Positions 13,846-25,000 of a stretch of 64,000 nt of DNA are shown one piece after another. Below the pieces are notes generated by a model. That model had not been told where the DNA came from, did not search any database, and worked only from the letters and a program-made list of their open reading frames with translations. The stretch comes from Spizellomyces punctatus DAOM BR117 (lineage: Eukaryota). Position numbers and translations under genes: made by a program. Each line of letters begins with the position of its first letter. The stretch's first letter is position 1. The stretch is taken from NCBI GenBank assembly GCA_000182565.2, contig KQ257457.1. The stretch is one strand, 5' to 3'.

Positions 13846-14146
13846 GTCTTTGTGCGGATGGGGGTCAATCTGTAATTGAATGAACGGCAACGATCTTCAA
13901 AATGCCCCACCACGACAGCGAGCTTTGAACTTCCACCAAAAACAATTCACAGCTGAAGTCTGCGCCTCTCACATGATATGAGTCACATGACTGATGGTAG
14001 ACTGATGGAGGGGGAAATCTCTGCCGTCTCGAAGGGCGTCAATCGTAGCCGACCACCACGCCGTGGCAAGCGAACCATCAAATAACGCTACTGAGGGATC
14101 TGCTCCTTGTTCAACCTGAAGCTATCCCTCTCTGACGCCGGACAGT

Positions 14147-16794
14147 ATGCCGTTCGCCAAGCCTCTTCCTGAGGCCATCTCGGCATTTCTAGACAAAGTC
14201 TCGTCCGCAGCGCTTCCGGCGGCTTCGACAGCTGCCACTATGCAGCTGCGAATCCAGCGCATTCGTCGTACGGCATTGGGTGTCGCGCTTGCTGGAGGTG
14301 CAATCTACTATATGCGTCGTCAAAAGCAGCGTGCTTCTATACGCGCCCTGGGTAAACCTGTAGAAGACGACGAAACAGCCACAATGAAGATCGACAAGAA
14401 TAAGATCAAAGTAGCAGTTGATAAACGGTTTCTGAGACAATTGAAGTACATTTGGGCTATTTGCGTGCCAAACTGGAGGTCGAAAACCGTGATGATTCTG
14501 GTTCTGCATACCACGTTTTTGATCCTGCGAACATACTTATCAGTTATCGTCGCGAGGTTGGATGGACGGTTGGTGAGAGATTTGGTGGCAGCTGATGCAA
14601 AATCATTTGGAAAGGGCTTGCTATACTGGTTTGCCGTTGCTATTCCTGCAACCTACACGAATAGCATGGTGAGTCCAGAACTTATTACTGGTGGCTGCAT
14701 CGCATACCTTATGGAAGCCCCTATACACCTTGATGAAATTCAATTTTGATTGTCGAATACTAACAGTCAGTTACTATTAGATTCGCTACTTACAGTCAAA
14801 GCTTTCGATTGCATTACGGACCAGCCTTACCCGTCACGTGCACGACCTTTACATGGAGAACAACACATATTACAAAGCTATTAACTTGGACAACCGCATT
14901 GATGGTGCCGATCAACTTATTACGACTGACATCAACCGATTCTGTACCGCGCTTGCGTCGCTGTACTCCAACTTGGGCAAGCCTATACTCGATATGATTA
15001 TCTTCAACTACCAGCTCGCACGTAGCATCGGAACATCCGGAATGTGGGGGTTGACTGTCAATTACTTCATTACCGCCAGTATTCTCAGAGCTGTAACCCC
15101 GTCCTTCGGAAAATTGGCTGCAGTTGAGGCAAAGCTTGAGGTAGGACTTTGGAATTGGCTTCTTAGTTGATCTGAATGAGCTTAAGTGTCGATATCATGT
15201 TCATAGGGAGACTTCCGTTCGGCCCATTCGCGCCTCATCACCAACGCGGAAGAAATTGCCTTTTATCATGGCGCCCATTTAGAAAAATCTATCTTGACCC
15301 GCACCTACTACCGCCTGATTAAGCACATCAACCACATTTATCGTATTAGGATCGCATACAACATGTTCGAGGACTTTATCATCAAATACACTTGGTCGGC
15401 GGCAGGATTGCTCATTGCCAGTATTCCGGTGTTTTACCCAGAGTTTGCTGGCGCCCGGTCGCGACGTGAAGAGGCAAGATTAGCTCAATTACAGGCATCT
15501 GATCCCGCGAATGCTCTTTCTCAGTTGGACAGAAAGACGGGAAGTAGAACACAGGGTTTCATTACCAACAAACGGTACGTGGTATGCTGCTAATGACAGC
15601 GGTGGGTGGAATGTCTAATACGCCACATGCCTACGTGTAGATTGATGGTGTCTCTTGCTGATGCTGGTGGTCGTATCATGTACTCATACAAGGAATTGAA
15701 CGAACTGGCCGGTTACACTTACCGAGTTTACAACATGTTACGCGTCCTGCAAGATCTCCACGACGATCGATTTGTTGACACTGGGAACACCGGTGCGGAG
15801 TACTCTTTGGAATCAATTGCAGGCAAATTGGAATATGACTTTGATGGTACTACCAGCAGCGTCGTGTGTTGTTACAGACGTATTGATGCTAATGTTTGCT
15901 GTCAGGTATCAAATTTGACAAAACACCCATCGTGACTCCGAATGGCGACACCGTCCTCATCCGTGACCTGTCCTTTGGAATTGGTCCTGGCGAGCATCTT
16001 ATGGTGACCGGCCCCAACGGAGCTGGCAAAACGTCGATCCTTCGTACCCTTGCAGGACTTTGGCCTATTTTCAGAGGCAAAATCTCGCGGCCTGCGCCCG
16101 GATTGGATTCAATCCTCTACATTCCTCAGCGCCCGTACTTGGCAATTGGTTCCTTGCGTGAGCAAGTCATTTACCCTCACACTGTGAAGCAAATGAAGCA
16201 GGCTGGAAAGACGGATGCGGATTTGGCCGAGATTCTGAAGAAGGTGTATTTGGAATATATTCCAGCAAGAGAAGGCGGATGGGACGCCGTCAAGGAGTGG
16301 AAGGACGTGTTCTCCGGAGGTGCGTGACCACTGTTTATGGAAATGTGAGAGGGATCTTAATATACAATTCCTGTACAGGTGAAAAACAACGCATGCAATT
16401 AGCACGTCTGTTTTACCACCATCCTCGGTTCGCCGTGTTGGACGAAGCCACCTCTGCTGTCTCGACTGATGTGGAAGCACTTCTCTACTCTACTGCAAAG
16501 GACGAAGGGATCACCGTCGTGACGATATCTCACCGCCCAAGTCTCTTCAAGTACCACAACTATCTCCTTCGAGTCGGTGAAGGAGAAAGTGGCGATGCAT
16601 GGGAGATGGAACGAATTGGTAGCGGCCATGGATTCATGGACTCTGTTGAGAGCGAGATTCGCAAATTGGAGGACCGGTTAGGCGATATTGGGCGGTTGAG
16701 GAGCCGGTTAGCAGACATCAACAAAGAGTTGAGTTTGGAGGTTGCACCAACCGGGGATAAAGATCTAAAGCATGCTAAACGGACTTTGATTTGA
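14147..16794 (+). CDS. PXA1: Peroxisomal ABCD half-transporter (Pxa1/ALDP-like)
   Basis: EAA motif (ITNAEEIAFYHG), SLADAGGRIMYSYKEL, Walker A GPNGAGKTS, YIPQRPY, signature FSGGEKQR, Walker B AVLDEATSAVS; about five introns. Confidence 0.93.
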
Positions 16795-18144: not shown

Positions 18145-21100
18145 ATGGCAGCACGAGATCCATCGCCTTTTAACCACCATATTAGTCTGTTCAACGATGC
18201 ACGCATCGCTCCTCACACTACCTCCCCATCGGCCCGCCCCGTTGTGACTCCTCGCACACCTCCAAATCTTAGACCACCCCGTCTAACGCTTAGTCTGTCC
18301 CATCCCACAAGCCAGCAAATCCAGCCAACGCACGAAACAATCCAACAAACATGGGCAGCGTTCGATGCCATGTCGGAAGCACAGCGGAACATGCTATTGA
18401 AGGGATTGGTGGCAAGATGTGGTGGAAAGCAGGTTGAAGGTCTCTGTACTTGGTTGAACTTGCGGATGGTGGACGGGAGTGTAAGTTTTAACGCTGTCAT
18501 CCTTCTCCACAAAACGACAATTCTCACGATTGTGTGGATATAATAGAGCCCAACTGTTTACCCAGAAAATGTCTCCAGCAAATACGCAACTGCTGTACAC
18601 AAGTCCAAAAGGATGCCCGCCAAAGGAGCATCACTTGCCGCTGTAGCAGCTGAGAGTACGACCGCAAAGACATCGGTGCTGGACACCGCGAGGCAGCTGG
18701 CTGGGTTTACCGGATTGAAAAAAGAGGTGAAATTGCCGCAGATTGATCGAGGGTAGGTGTTATCCCCAGACGTGGCGTCGCCCTTTCTAGACCAAACCTT
18801 GTACATTTCATAGAAAGTCAAGAGTAGCTACTGAGGAAGATGACGATTCTTTCTTTCCATCCGCTCATGCATTATCCAACCCTACCCCGAACTTGGCGCA
18901 AGATGGGGGTTTTGCGAGCCACCGCCTTCACAGTGCAGACCGACCCCACAACATAAACATTAATCTCTACACTAAACTCCTCCACACCCATCAGGATGCC
19001 GATACCCTTGCAAAGCAACTTCTTCGCGCTGGTCCGGAACCGACACGAACCTTTATTCACTTCCTCTCCAACCGACTCCAAAAATCCCAACATCTGATCA
19101 CAAGCATCACCGAAATCGCCATGGAGCCCGATACAGAAAAGGCCATGAACGATCTTCTCAACCATCTGCTGAATACAGTCGACGCCAGATATGCGACAGT
19201 CTACCTCCTTGAAGACACAATACCAGAAACGACCGTGGTCCGCGCTAGTAATTGGGCTCAAGTTGGCAACAGCGTCTCGCTCCAGAATATCTTCAATGGC
19301 CCTACACTCCAGAAACTCGGACAACCCAGCAATGCGTACAATGTAAAAACATCGGAACAGTATACCGACGATATTCAAGATGCGTACGCTTCGGTTAATC
19401 CAGACTGCATCCTTTCAGCACCAATCCTGGACAATGAAGGTCGATTCGCGGGAATATTGGAGCTTATCAACAAGACCACTCCAACACCTTTTTTTGAAGC
19501 TGAGGACGAAAGTGTAGTCAAACTTGTCGCAAGCCTGTGGACAGTGCTGATGAAACGGTCTCAAATATTGTTGGAGCAGACGCAGCAAACGGCGGATATT
19601 AGGGCTTTCCTAAATACCGCTTCAGTGATGACTTCTGAAATCGACTTGGGGGGTGCGTATAGACATCATAATTTTGTTTCTCACAAAAACCTATACTCAT
19701 TCCTCTGTTGTGGGTTAGCACAGACTTGATCAAAGTTATCATGCAAACATCTCAAGAGCTCCTCAAAGCCGAGCGATGTTCCCTGTTTATGGTGGACAAA
19801 GAGAAGCAAGAATTGTGGACTACCGTTGCGCAAGGAACGGAGGAGATTCGCATACCCATCAACAAAGGGATTGCCGGTGAGCACATGGCACGATCATAAA
19901 AAACCTGTCCTCAGGTATCTGATTAATCTGCAAATTTTGGTTGACCGTAGGGCATGTCGCCATGACCGGTACACTGCTCAACATCCCAAATGGTACGGTA
20001 AGGTGTCGTTGACCGGGCTGCACAATGAACTAACCGCCTGAGTGTTCATCCAGCTTACAAGGATCACCGCTTCAATCGCTCCGTCGATCTCAAAACCGGA
20101 TACCGCACCCGTAATATTCTCTGTATGCCCATGAAAAACAGTTCGGGGAATGTCATCGGTGTTACGCAAATCATTAACAAGTTGCCCGAATCGGCGGTGT
20201 TTAGTCGGGAGGATGAAATGCTAGGAATGAGTTTTGCCGGATTAGGTATGTGATCTCGTGCAGTCTCTTTTCAAAGTAATGCATTCTCTAATATGAATAT
20301 AACTCAGCTGGTGGGATGCTCGAAAAGTCTCTCCAATTCAAGGCCCTTCAAATCCAGCTCCAGAGCACCACAGCTGAGCGAGACTTGGTCAGTACCGCTT
20401 TTCAAAATACCCCCCACATCATCCTGGCTCTCGACCACGCTGGCAGACTGGTACGACTTTATCCAATCCGCAACTAGAGGGTTTTATGCTAACTTGTATG
20501 CTCCAGTTAACCGTCAATGATGCAGTGCCGTTGGGACTTCCTGATCTATCCCTCCTAAGACTTACCACCTACGACACCTGGCTTTCCCCAAATGACGTAC
20601 TCATATCTGACATCAAAGCCACGTATGAAACCAATCGTCCAGCGTATGCGGAGGGATATGTCTTTCGTACTGAGGATGGCGCGAACGTGGATGTGAATTA
20701 TGCTGTGGTAAAGATGGAAAGCGGGCTTATCATAGATGTGGAGGTTGTCGGGGACGATAGGAGACTTGCAGCAGATCTGGGAAGGTAGAGAGAAGGATTT
20801 TCCCTGGCCTTGCCGTTAACAGCTCACAAACCTCCTTCCTCCAGATATATGCATCTGGGGCTGGTGCGGGAGGTCCAAGGTGACGACGCATCGCTGCACG
20901 GGAAGAAAAGTCAGATGAGCGTGCTGGTTGCAGAGCTGAGAGAGTGTATGTAGCGGATAGTGGTTTGAAGTCATTTTTCCCGGTTGTTCATCATCTGTAC
21001 CGAACCTGCTAGTTGCATCCATTACCAACAACTTCCCACCATCCTCCGTGATTACATTGCTGAACGAGCACCACTCATCGATCTACGCCTCCATTTCATC

Positions 21101-21965
21101 GGAGAACGGTACTCGCCGGCGTCCAATTCCAGTCTCGCAACTATTACTAACCACATTACACATCTCACAGGCCTCCTTCAAACTCAAACTGGTCCCACCA
21201 CCCTCTCACTATTTGGTCTACCATACTGTTCACCCACAGATGCCGTAAGATGTGTTTCCTGTGCTTTAAAAATCAAAGACTCTATCTTGGAACGCAATGA
21301 AAAAAGCACAGTTAAAATGGAGGTTGGAATTGGGATTGCGACGGGGGATATGGTGTGGGGCCTGGTAGGACATCCGAAGCGAAGGGATGTTGTGGGTGTT
21401 GGCGGTCAGTTGACTCTTTGCGATATGCTCTCGGATATCCACATACTAACTACTGCCTTCTTGCGATAGATCCTCTCCATCTTTCAACTCATCTCCGCAC
21501 CATCATAAAAACTTACACGTCCAAAACATCCATCCTCATCTGCGAATCGACAAAGGAGGCCGTCAAAGAGCATTTTCATCTTCGTGAACTGGACGCTATA
21601 TCATGGGGTGATAAGCCTGATACCCCGGCATTGGTGATTTACGAGGTTCTACATCCCTCCACAATAGAGTTGGATAAGAATGTTATGACCGTAAGTATTA
21701 ACCCATTTTGTGCAGCAAACTACAATCCATCGCTCATTCGGATATCTCTCCCCTTGTTTTTCAACAGTCACTCATATGCTACGAACTAGGACTTTCTGAT
21801 TATCGCTCAAGAAATTTCGGAACTGCTTTGAATCATTTTCGAAAGGCGGTTCAAATGACCCAAGATGAGCCATCTAAAACAATGGTGGCGAGATGTCGAC
21901 AGGTGCTGGATGGACGGGTCGTTGTACCGCAGGAATGGGATAGTGTATGGAGGTGGGATGGATGA
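18145..21965 (+). CDS. GAF-GAF-PAS-class III cyclase homology domain-TPR protein (CyaB-like), cyclase apparently inactive
   Basis: GAF-A …ILELINK…[20 protein letters not shown]…GIAGHVAMTG…AYKDHRFN…[11 protein letters not shown]…INK…FSREDE. Cyclase fold LGRYM…[10 protein letters not shown]…FGLP…GIGIATGD…GD; TPR tail ending WDSVWRWDG. About ten introns. Confidence 0.85.
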
Positions 21966-22028
21966 TCTTGGGGCATTAAGCTTAAGACTTAAAAAATATT
22001 GTAAAATACTGTAATTGGTGCATTGGTT

Positions 22029-25000
22029 CTATTCATCTACTTCTTGACCAGCAATCGTTTCCATTTCCAACTTTGCCTCGAATCGAGAATGATGTAGAAT
22101 TTCCTAAATATGACAAAAAAGCGTTAGCAGCTTGCACAGTTGAGAAACTGTTGTCAGTATTTACCTTGACACGCTCCCTCAAGACCTGCTTCCGAAACTC
22201 CCTCCAGCGCTGTTCTTTCTGCTCCGCTACAAACTCTTTCCACAATCGTAGACATCGCCTTGGTAGGATTCGCTTCATTAGCTGATCAGCTTTCGCATTG
22301 AGAGCACGTTCGTGTGCTTCGCGGGTTTGGCTGGTGGTCAAAGCTTTACGTCGCCAGGTCTGAAACGTGCTGAGGATGACATGGTGCTTATGGTGTTTGC
22401 AGGCATCTGAAGTGTGGCATTTGTGCGTTTGATATGCCTTCCGTACATTGGGACCAAGTGAAGCGGATTCGTAAGGGATTGCAAAATATATGGAATTCTT
22501 AACCCTCAGGTCTCACCTCTTTCCATCGATCCCATCCTGATTTTACAGCTCTCTGATCCCACAGTTTTGATGCCATAATCTCCCTCTCTTCCCATCGTTC
22601 TCTGAACCTTTGTATCCACCCTTTGAACAAACAGCGAACCCAAAATCCAAGAGATGCTTCCTCGTTCCTCCGAACCGCACCCACAAAAGTCTTCAAACAT
22701 TTCAACCCCTTCCTCAACAGGCGTTTCCTGCTAAACGTGCACGCAAGAGCATTTACACGCCGTTGCTCGGCAAGCTGCTCCGCTAAGGCTTTCTCGGCTG
22801 CTTTACGGGACTCGATGAGAATACGACGCTCTTCTGCTTCTTGGAGAGCTTTTGCCTCTGCTTCTGCTGCCTTCTTGGCCTATTAGATGGACGGAATGAG
22901 ACTTTGGCGGGCAATGAATTCACTGATTGGTTACACGGACCTCCAGCGCTTCCTGACGCTCTTTGCGACGCTGTTCAAGCTGTTGGCGACGGTCTCTACG
23001 TTCTGCATCTCTCTTTTCCATTTCTGAGGGTTGGCATGACGCAATGTGAAACGGGGCTATTTAAATATGGAAATGAACATCCATACTAAAGCCTGCCTTA
23101 CCTGCAATCCACTTTTGGTCTTGTGCAGTTCGAATACGCCTGGGTTTCTGGGGCGATGGTGCCTTGCGGCGGATTGTCGACTGTTTTGGCGAATCGTTGA
23201 GCGTTGATGCGCAAGCAACTTTATTCTCTTCTGTTGGTGCCGGAGTTGGAGCCTTGGGTTCTTCTACATTTGTCGCTGGACCCTTGTTCACATCCTCCCC
23301 ATCTATAATGGCATTCATGTCTTTGCTGTCATCATTGGACAAGCTCTCCCCACTCGTACTTGCATCCAATCTCTCCAAAACCTTGCCCACTCTTCTCTCC
23401 TCAATCTCTGCCTCAACTCTCTGTCGTCGTTCCAGGCGCTCCAAGGCCTCTTTCATGCGCTTGGCCCGCTCTTCGTGTTGGCGACGGAGGCGTTTAGCTT
23501 CACCTGTCACAAAAGGAGAAGGAAATGGGCAGAGTTAATCTCGTTTTTGCATGGGTAGTTCACATAAGCAGTAACGTACGTTGAAGTCTCGTCCATCCCA
23601 GCCATGCGAGCACTACTTTTGAAAGTATTGTCGATCTCTGAAAGCGGACGGCCTTCAACTGGTTTTCATGGGATTTTTGGAGGGCTTCTTGAAGCGCCTG
23701 GGCTTCTCTAATCAAAAATGTTGTCACTACGTGCAATCATACTGCTTGCTGCATACCACGAGACGCTCATAAAAGATAGCATACCGTTTGGCTATACAAG
23801 ACTGCTTCAGTTTCCGCCAGGTCGCGAACGACCGATTCAAATGTCGCCAAGTGGTAATGACCTATAGATGTGTATTCAGCAAAGTGCCATCCAGAATCTG
23901 AAAGCTATGGACTGGTACTGACCTGAAACTGCTGCACTTGTTTTCGATATGTGGTGACAAGAGCACACCAGCTTGAGAAATGCACCTACCAATAAAGTCA
24001 GCAAACCTAATCACAGTCCAGAGCTCAAATTTCTCGCACTTTGAGGGCTTTCAACCGACGAACAGAAAATAGCTCGTCAGCTCTGGCGCGGGATTGAGCC
24101 AGTTTTCGCTCGATTATCTCATTCCGCCGTTTTTCGTCTTCTTTTTGAGACTCTGTCTTGAGCTGAGCTTCACTGTCATTCAAGTCCGTCTTTTCAACTT
24201 TCACCTTTCCTGTTTCAACATCGGAGATCGTCGGTACGTCAGCCGTGGTGCGCATTTTCGCATACTCTTCGTCACTAGTTAAAATTAAATGGACAGTTTG
24301 CCAAATAACAATTCAGTATAGACTCACACCACCAGCTCGCGTGCTCGCTCAAAATCCTCATTTCGCGGTCCATATGGCTTATCAGAACGCTTCCTCCCCA
24401 TATCTTCGTCGAGCGCCGCTCGTGCCGCTCGAAGGGCAATGTCCATTTTCCATTGATCAATCTTGGAATGTTTTGGTCTTGGGTGACCCAGATACTAATA
24501 AGATACTTTATTCTATCTAATTTACAGACATTTGTCGGACGCTCACCTGGCTCTCTCAACATGTTTCTGTCGCAAGGAAGATAGCAATTTTTGCTGTTTG
24601 CTCTCTATTTGGCGCTCAAGGGCTTGTATGCGATGTTTATGATGTTGTTCCCGGCGCTCGCGCGCGAGAGCATGACGAGTTTGAGTTTCTGAATGGCGTG
24701 AATACGGGCTGATGGAACCTTGGTGGGTGCGTGAGTATAGAGCGCTTCCCTTTATGCATCAAGGTTGACAGAATGTTATTTTCAACATACGGTAACCCCT
24801 TCCGCATAAACAGGCGCCTACCCTGATATCTCCGTATCCCACAACCTCCTCAACCACCTCCCTGACAGCCTTCCGATCACTCGCTCCACATAGTTTTTCT
24901 TCCAAAGACATAAAGGCACCCAAGTTTAGATTCAGCTTTATGCGATTAGAGGCGTCGTCGGAAGGCTCGGGTGGTGCCGGATTTGACACCCACTGCGTTA

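Follow-up and report, generated by a model that had tools for sequence, protein, structure and literature searches.

A GAF-GAF-Cyclase Protein of Spizellomyces punctatus with All Six Catalytic Residues Replaced: A Candidate Cyclic-Nucleotide-Sensing Regulator from a Chytrid Family

The Locus and Its Gene Model

The stretch of DNA analysed here, called the window below, comprises 64,000 nucleotides of contig KQ257457.1 (assembly GCA_000182565.2) from Spizellomyces punctatus DAOM BR117. Between 18145 and 21965 it carries, on the + strand, a gene for a protein with two GAF domains (GAF-A and GAF-B), a PAS-like unit, a class III cyclase homology domain, and a helical tail, in which all six catalytic positions of the cyclase domain hold noncanonical residues. 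The protein belongs to a family of chytrid orthologues (family A) that has a sister family with intact catalytic residues (family B), and we suggest that it may act as a noncatalytic sensor of cyclic nucleoside monophosphates (cNMPs).

Splicing the window by hand yielded a coding sequence (CDS) of 13 exons and 12 introns, with an open frame of 3039 bases that runs from an ATG at 18145-47 to a TGA at 21963-65 and encodes 1012 amino acids. The introns are 56-77 nucleotides long and all have GT..AG borders, and the ATG is the first in frame past a stop codon at 18040-42. A first-pass annotation, made from the letters of the window, had described an intact frame with canonical introns, and this description holds. 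Its start at 18893 was wrong: the position lies inside exon 3, 748 bases downstream of 18145, and the earlier model thereby missed two upstream exons and about 250 N-terminal residues, including a conserved, family-specific helical motif. The N-terminus given here is matched by that of P0001, a 1012-residue protein of Spizellomyces sp. 'palustris' that aligns with the window protein gap-free and differs at 41 of 1012 residues (96% identity).

The transcript check that the first-pass annotation had proposed bears out the exon structure. Contigs of run X4, spanning 18309-22100, contain all 12 joints at the exact predicted borders, each GT..AG, and represent one spliced form only. The run is registered as 'DNA?'; we take it to be cDNA, since none of the 12 introns is present in its contigs. 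Among the raw reads of RNA run X19, two of the 12 joints are present, 21690>21768 in three reads and 20782>20843 in one. These reads are strongly 3'-biased, with a depth maximum at 21836-21972, and 15 of them end in a run of A behind position 22039, placing the poly(A) site there and a 3' untranslated region at 21966..22039 on the + strand. Sequence X1 is unspliced and shows 0 differences to the window.

Downstream, at 22033-22879 on the - strand, lies a convergent neighbour with open frames of 159 and 126 amino acids, neither of which has a Pfam match at E<=0.01. Its end falls within a few bases of the poly(A) site at 22039, and opposite-direction X19 reads cover 21699-22100 at a depth of 3-6; the two 3' ends therefore probably overlap. 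The upstream neighbour, at 14120-16794 on the + strand, resembles an ABC transporter: ABC_membrane_2 matches at 14120-14749 (E 1.2e-16), and ABC_tran weakly at 16162-16794.

Domain Architecture and the Replaced Catalytic Residues

The domains are distributed over the exons, all on the + strand, as follows. Exon 1 (18145..18480) encodes a disordered N-terminus and a three-helix motif (residues 62-103; 18328-18453), and exon 2 (18547..18752), whose joints 18480>18547 and 18751/2>18813/4 are both present in X4, a low-complexity linker. Exon 3 (18814..19652) continues the linker and adds a helical lead-in and GAF-A (residues 291-430; 19142-19561). GAF-B begins in exon 4 (19724..19876), which, like exon 5 (19951..19992), has its joints in X4, and includes exon 6 (20054..20245), where the Pfam GAF match exceeds the cut-off (E 5.2e-6, 27.5 bits). 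A connecting helix and the start of the PAS-like domain are found in exon 7 (20308..20450; joints in X4), and the domain, placed by the predicted model at residues ~605-725 (20352-20770), extends into exon 8 (20507..20784). The cyclase homology domain starts in exon 9 (20845..20945), runs through exon 10 (21013..21108; joints in X4) and exon 11 (21171..21404), in which Guanylate_cyc matches over its cut-off (E 1.9e-6, 28.1 bits), and ends in exon 12 (21470..21690), whose joint to exon 13 is the one shared by X4 and the three X19 reads. Exon 13 (21768..21965) supplies a conserved, three-helix, TPR-like tail and the TGA, with a TPR_2 match (E 8.4e-4, 19.7 bits) that falls short of the cut-off of 27.

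Pfam applied to P0001 gave GAF in two stretches (1.1e-24) and Guanylate_cyc (9.8e-11), with TPR_2 under the cut-off at 0.032 and no PAS match at E<=0.1. Among 54 aligned homologues, PAS_4 is matched in 34 and TPR_2, at E<=0.01, in 12. By sequence, the GAF tandem matches the solved structures 1ykd, the tandem of CyaB2 (4.7e-49), 4mcw, a GAF-HD-GYP protein (1.3e-34), and PDE2A (3.9e-33), while the solved structure nearest to the cyclase part is 2W01, Synechocystis Cya2 (E 1e-17), with 3R5G matching at 2.9e-5.

An AF2 model of P0001 has a mean predicted local distance difference test score (pLDDT) of 79 and exceeds 90 across GAF-A, GAF-B, the PAS-like unit, the cyclase domain, and the tail. The PAS-like unit has a beta2-alpha3-beta3 topology at this level of confidence, and the tail consists of three C-terminal helices, those of residues 943-994 scoring above 90. 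Residues 1-62 and 107-227 are predicted to be disordered (pLDDT <50 at 107-227), and the three helices of residues 62-103 score 62-78. Foldseek matched the GAF part to the tandem GAFs of PDE2A, CyaB2, and PDE5A, and the cyclase domain to 2w01_C (TMt 0.85, root-mean-square deviation 2.0) and 3r5g (TMt 0.84). By homology and by fold (Guanylate_cyc, 2W01, Foldseek) the domain thus belongs to class III; in the model the fold of the cyclase is kept, and its chemistry is gone.

Class III active sites are built across a dimer interface, one chain supplying two metal-binding Asp residues and the other Lys, Thr/Ser/Asp, Asn, and Arg. In the window protein the first metal Asp is Glu760 (codon 20933-35, in VAELREF), the substrate Lys is Thr800 (21182-84, in LQTQTGP), the second metal Asp is Pro804 (21194-96, within the Gly-Pro of 21191-96), and the transition-state Asn and Arg are His877 (21478-80) and His881 (21490-92), both in DPLHLSTHL, which is read from 21404/21472. 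These five replacements had been named in the first-pass annotation, and its coordinates prove exact; a sixth lost position, the substrate Thr/Ser/Asp, is Val870 (21392-94) and is new. Written in the order first Asp, Lys, second Asp, Thr/Ser/Asp, Asn, Arg, the window protein reads ETPVHH, and none of the six is canonical. P0001 is identical to it at all of them, and in phmmer alignments of the C-terminal part of P0001 with 2W01, 6FHT, 3R5G, and photoactivated cyclases the replaced residues face canonical ones, the stretches opposite in 2W01, 6FHT, and 3R5G being sDlrgF, DefmGD or DkfvGD, and evNlasRl.

Measured against active class III enzymes, both metal-binding positions (Glu760, Pro804), both substrate positions (Thr800, Val870, where Lys or Glu and Asp/Thr/Ser or Cys/Gly would be expected), and both transition-state positions (His877, His881) deviate, and neither half-site set, the Asp pair or the Lys/Thr/Asn/Arg set, is kept. 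A scan of every + frame of 20700-21800, intronic sequence as well, for four canonical motif patterns found none of them; no alternative exon that would restore D/K/D/N/R was found in that interval, and X4 presents a single form. Since both residue sets are gone and the site is formed across the interface, no site would arise whether the protein pairs with itself or with another chain; the class III mechanism itself implies what had been stated earlier, that a heterodimer could not be complemented by this protein. We conclude that the window protein very probably lacks cyclase activity.

Homology to an enzyme and loss of the catalytic residues, yet with expression and conservation, make up the operational definition of a pseudoenzyme, and all are found here. 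The label 'pseudo-enzyme' given in the first pass is thus justified by a gene that has lost both half-site sets and is nevertheless intact, spliced, polyadenylated, and evolutionarily maintained.

As had been claimed in the first pass, both GAF domains keep the NK..F...DE motif, at residues 400-413 (19469-19510, exon 3) in GAF-A and at residues 567-580 (20176-20217, exon 6) in GAF-B, and the tandem matches to 1ykd and PDE2A agree with the description of GAF-B as PDE/CyaB-like; over the ligand-binding core it is ~50% identical to PDE2A GAF-B. Six residues are named as cAMP contacts of CyaB2 GAFb, namely Arg291, Thr293, Ile308, Thr309, Asp356, and Asn359 (PMC4411481). In the window GAF-B two of these are identical (Arg291 is Arg478, at 19774; Asp356 is Asp537, at 20086), and two are changed conservatively (Thr293 to Ser480, Ile308 to Val495). 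Thr309, a backbone contact, is replaced by Ala496, and Asn359 by Thr540 (20095), as in PDE2A. The odds lean slightly toward binding of cAMP or cGMP by GAF-B.

GAF domains bind many ligands (PMC4411481), and GAF-B, GAF-A, or the PAS-like domain might instead bind some other small molecule, which would place the protein outside cNMP signalling. In line with this alternative, nonconservative changes affect two of the six CyaB2 contact positions, and divergence is high in GAF-A and in the PAS-like domain. Against it, GAF-B retains NKFDE together with the two contacts Arg and Asp, all of its best matches among solved structures are GAFs that bind cNMPs or close relatives of these, and in all family A members it is 39-49% identical to the GAF-B of canonical cyclases, regardless of catalytic loss. 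We regard a ligand of another kind as quite unlikely.

Two Sister Families in Chytrids

Homologues were collected by word-indexed and exhaustive searches, with 45,624 representatives at E<=0.001, and by name look-ups, and the six catalytic positions were read from a hidden Markov model (HMM) alignment. A cyclase stretch is present in 228 homologues, of which 146 read DKDTNR and 36 DKDSNR. Many Chytridiomycota possess one family A orthologue per species, annotated at source as 'hypothetical' or 'GAF domain-like', and in the literature we searched we found no description of this family.

Among 16 sampled family A orthologues, 15 are noncanonical. The exception, Chytridiales sp. JEL 0842, has all six residues (DKDTNR). 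B. salamandrivorans has lost one (DKDTLR), and intermediate states are seen in Cladochytrium (NKDTKV), Lobulomyces and Clydaea (NKDTCQ), Chytriomyces MP71 (NKEITQ), Entophlyctis (DKQLEY), Polychytrium (NHESAL), Boothiomyces (DESSEQ), and Globomyces (DQDQKE). In the Spizellomyces-type clade all seven rows have lost all or nearly all positions: the window protein and 'palustris' read ETPVHH, P. arcticum ENASTA (keeping a permissible Ser), Gaertneriomyces ENPCTH, Thoreauomyces ETSIAV, Geranomyces ETSMQA or EASMQA, and Powellomyces ISTAHL. The first-pass annotation had asked whether orthologues share the substitutions; the loss itself is shared, and the replacement residues differ between relatives. 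Degeneration is, on these alignments, a family-wide, stepwise process in chytrids and not specific to the window gene.

The same variation bears on the idea that Glu760 and the two His residues form a different metal site with residual or altered catalysis. Glu does recur at the first metal position in eight of nine Spizellomyces-type sequences. The other five positions vary among close relatives (ETPVHH, ENASTA, ENPCTH, ETSIAV, ETSMQA, ISTAHL), so that no new constellation of residues is conserved, and the second metal position of the window protein is Pro; we consider a repurposed site very improbable.

Family B came to light in a search with P0040 of P. arcticum, which reads DKDSNR. The active paralogue that the first-pass annotation had proposed looking for is accordingly present in the genus, and in S. 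punctatus DAOM BR117 itself: P0193 (Spizellomyces 'palustris', 1293 amino acids) and P0194 (SPPG_00950, 925 amino acids) both carry DKDSNR. Further members occur in most chytrids sampled and in Gonapodya, Blastocladiella, Catenaria, and Rozella. All complete rows read DKDSNR, except for DKDTNR in Rozella; a few are gapped or truncated (e.g., D-DSNR, DKA---). The source names are 'hypothetical protein' or 'guanylate cyclase domain-containing', and to our knowledge family B is uncharacterised as well. By its residues it is apparently an active, conserved, GAF-regulated class III cyclase of zoosporic fungi. B. emersonii is credited with 17 cyclase genes (PMC9730499); the main text of that paper contains 'GAF' 0 times, its supplementary tables and figures, which possibly list the Blastocladiella family B gene, lying outside that count.

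A quick IQ-TREE analysis, with Shimodaira-Hasegawa-like approximate likelihood ratio test (SH-aLRT) support only, was run on 49 chosen rows (16 of family A, 20 of ~40 of family B, and 13 others), leaving out near-duplicates, strain copies, fragments (e.g., P0018, P0031), and most bacterial matches. Support was 100 for family A, 96 for family B, and 81 for the two as sisters. Proteins of the protists Entosiphon, Clastostelium, Diphylleia, and Planoprotostelium stand next to the pair, and bacterial proteins outside; with protist and fungal homologues lying between family A and the bacterial rows, a direct gene transfer from cyanobacteria is not supported. In family A both the stem (0.58) and the branches are long, the shortest branch (0.21) being that of the intact JEL 0842 protein, which may represent the ancestral condition of family A, with activity not yet lost. 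Parsimony counts one loss of Asn, two of Arg, three each of the first Asp and Lys, and four each of the second Asp and Thr/Ser, a pattern compatible with a single early hit and independent decay thereafter.

The two families share their architecture from GAF-B to the tail and reside together in at least seven species (Spizellomyces 'palustris', P. arcticum, Cladochytrium replicatum, B. salamandrivorans, Boothiomyces JEL0838, Entophlyctis luteolus, and Lobulomyces angularis). Family B differs in its kept catalytic residues, its short branches, and its lack of the N-terminal three-helix motif. This motif, which includes QVE..CTWLNL, is found in all named proteins of family A, whether or not their catalytic residues are intact, that of JEL 0842 among them. 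An HMM built from residues 60-112 of P0001 matched 27 of 300 sequences; all the named ones belong to family A and none to family B, two (P0048, P0072) are unnamed, and the motif is absent from every other homologue in the set. It has no Pfam match at E<=0.1, and Atlas leads (Beta-TrCP_D 0.78, Vts1 0.76) fall under the Atlas reliability mark. As judged from the sequences sampled, family A is chytrid-specific and marked by this motif, which may be its real output module.

Several observations on individual homologues stand apart from this comparison. P. arcticum is filed under Chytridiales in the NCBI taxonomy, and its family A (P0003) and family B (P0040) proteins both group tightly with Spizellomyces (SH-aLRT 100), which suggests that the species belongs with the Spizellomycetales. 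Precomputed Pfam lists give extra domains to three proteins with intact catalytic residues: a phosphodiesterase domain (PF00233) in P0019 of Entosiphon sulcatum (1936 amino acids), ankyrin repeats in P0197 of Cladochytrium replicatum (1600 amino acids), and WD40 and other domains in P0213 of Gonapodya (1887 amino acids). The cyclase-phosphodiesterase fusion of Entosiphon is worth a look.

Constraint on the window gene is uneven. The 41 differences to P0001 fall in residues 1-230 (18), GAF-A (four), GAF-B (one), the PAS-like unit (seven), the cyclase domain (ten), and the tail (one), so that GAF-B has changed once in 151 residues and the cyclase domain ten times in 208. Contig X9, from a relative, differs from the window at 289 positions and has 39 gaps in 4101 bases; its exon 1 has 27 differences, 16 synonymous and 11 nonsynonymous (the same 11 residue changes as in P0001), for proportions of differing sites of 0.196 (synonymous, pS) and 0.043 (nonsynonymous, pN). 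Ten changes over ~474 nonsynonymous sites give ~0.02 for the cyclase domain, about a tenth of pS, as a rough estimate. Within family A, identity to P0001 is 56-77% in GAF-B, 52-75% in the tail, and 38-80% in the N-terminal motif, as against 26-39% in the cyclase domain, 29-38% in the PAS-like unit, and 12-46% in the linker.

Could the gene be a functionless copy decaying by neutral drift? For the same species pair the cyclase domain has accumulated about two times as many changes as its counterpart in the active paralogue (ten versus five), as decay would have it. Set against this, an intact frame is shared by at least 16 species from several chytrid orders, transcripts of the window gene undergo splicing and polyadenylation, and the single change in GAF-B contrasts with a pS of ~0.2. 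The cyclase domain too, at the roughly estimated ~0.02, is far from neutral. We consider neutral drift extremely improbable and judge, from these comparisons, that the gene is very probably maintained by purifying selection, with a cyclase domain that is relaxed but not free and a sensor that is fully constrained.

A Candidate Sensor and Its Place among Known Cyclases

Because the catalytic residues are lost and an intact paralogue exists elsewhere in the genome, this copy probably senses or regulates. We propose, with a probability of roughly 0.55, that the window gene encodes a catalytically dead family A paralogue that functions as a noncatalytic cNMP-sensing regulator. In this scheme the family A protein would make no cAMP or cGMP, alone or in a mixed dimer; its conserved GAF-B would bind a cyclic nucleotide; binding would be passed on through the PAS-like domain and the dimeric pseudo-cyclase domain, the latter serving purely as a structural, dimerising relay; and the output would be a protein-protein contact made through the conserved tail and the family-specific N-terminal motif.

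Several points weigh against this proposal. GAF-A has diverged too far for a firm Pfam match, the window exon giving no better than GAF_3 at E 0.064; its assignment leans mainly on the predicted fold (pLDDT >90, with tandem-GAF Foldseek matches to 1mc0, 1ykd, and 3lfv). The AF2 model itself was made for the 96%-identical P0001 rather than for the window protein, from a 54-sequence alignment. Transcript support begins at 18309, with the X4 contig, and does not reach the 164 bases at the 5' end of the CDS. In the selection estimate, synonymous change was counted in exon 1 only (40 of the 289 X9 differences, all before 18494), and amino-acid differences to P0001 supplied the nonsynonymous count for the cyclase domain. 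That domain is the fastest-evolving folded one; compared with 39 canonical nonchytrid homologues it is 45% identical in JEL 0842, 22-29% in the Spizellomyces-type clade, and 29% in the window type, and for these reasons it may be only a spacer. Finally, cNMP specificity depends on the context of the tandem (PMC4411481), and the identity of the ligand therefore cannot be read from sequence.

What the proposed sensor would contact is a separate matter. That the active paralogue is among the partners of family A is a tentative idea, short of probable. A more specific version holds that family A proteins enter mixed dimers with family B and, as chains without either residue set, leave both sites of the dimer dead, which would amount to a cNMP-gated brake on a self-activating cyclase. 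The sister relationship, the presence of an active paralogue of the same domain order in the genus, and the co-occurrence of the families all speak for it, and chytrids offer a precedent in the obligate RGC/NeoR cyclase heterodimers, in which the NeoR cyclase alone is inactive (PMC7655827, PMC10622942). The cyclase domains of the two families are, however, only ~25-30% identical, the N-terminal motif of family A suggests other partners, and the partly degenerate members (DKDTLR, NKDTCQ, DQDQKE) show no consistent complementarity; we think such silencing possible but doubtful.

An unlikely elaboration is that the messenger that activates family B also loads GAF-B of family A, which would then form silent mixed dimers or sequester family B through the N-terminal motif and tail. 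If this were true, a positive-feedback switch would become a pulse generator in chytrid cells, and the stepwise decay from an initial Asn loss would record how a brake evolves from a duplicate enzyme.

Returning to the noncatalytic sensor that we favour, its closest architectural parallels are cyanobacterial. CyaB1 carries a TPR-like tail, and CyaB1 and CyaB2 share with the window protein the order of domains (GAF, GAF, PAS, cyclase, with a PAS-like unit in third place in the window protein), the NKFDE motif in both GAF domains, and the Arg291 and Asp356 contacts. The window protein differs in being eukaryotic, with 12 introns, in the replacement of all six catalytic residues, and in having an extra N-terminal three-helix motif and ~230 disordered residues. 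The earlier likening to CyaB1 and CyaB2 of Anabaena, which are cAMP-activated GAF cyclases (PMC4411481), accordingly stands for the architecture and fails for kinship: by descent the protein is closest to a fungal sister family and to protist proteins, with bacteria outside, and the nearest solved cyclase is Cya2. The cyclase domains of that guanylyl cyclase (2W01) and of P. aeruginosa CyaB (3R5G) are the nearest ones with solved structures; both proteins are, unlike the window protein, active enzymes with canonical residues. The GAF tandems of PDE2, PDE5, PDE6, and PDE10 are a further parallel, through the likeness of GAF-B to that of PDE2A, but their output is a phosphodiesterase where here it is a dead cyclase.

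Chytrid RGC/NeoR, the mammalian membrane adenylyl cyclase C1/C2 domains, and soluble guanylyl cyclase are like family A in that an incompetent cyclase domain is kept as a partner or regulatory unit. The chains of those pairs are complementary, the metal-binding Asp residues coming from one and the substrate and transition-state residues from the other, to form one working site. Each such heterodimer keeps one half-site set per chain; the window protein has neither. Degenerate cyclase domains as such are known. What is new is the erasure of both half-sites across an entire orthologous family that persists next to an intact sister family and is marked by a new N-terminal module.

Cyclic-nucleotide signalling in zoosporic fungi is known mostly from rhodopsin-guanylyl cyclases. 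Passages of one study (PMC9616733) describe S. punctatus as having none of these and as keeping, of the CyclOp system, only the cGMP-gated channel BeCNG1. Family A offers a natural series leading from a sensor-enzyme to a pure sensor or regulator, with the active site intact in JEL 0842, one residue lost in B. salamandrivorans, part of it lost in other members, and all of it in Spizellomyces. S. punctatus is reportedly genetically transformable, and the series could thus be tested there. Annotations that equate 'cyclase domains' with cyclases over-count the enzymes in chytrids, which hold an apparently active family B beside a chytrid-only family A that has been kept very long after losing catalysis.

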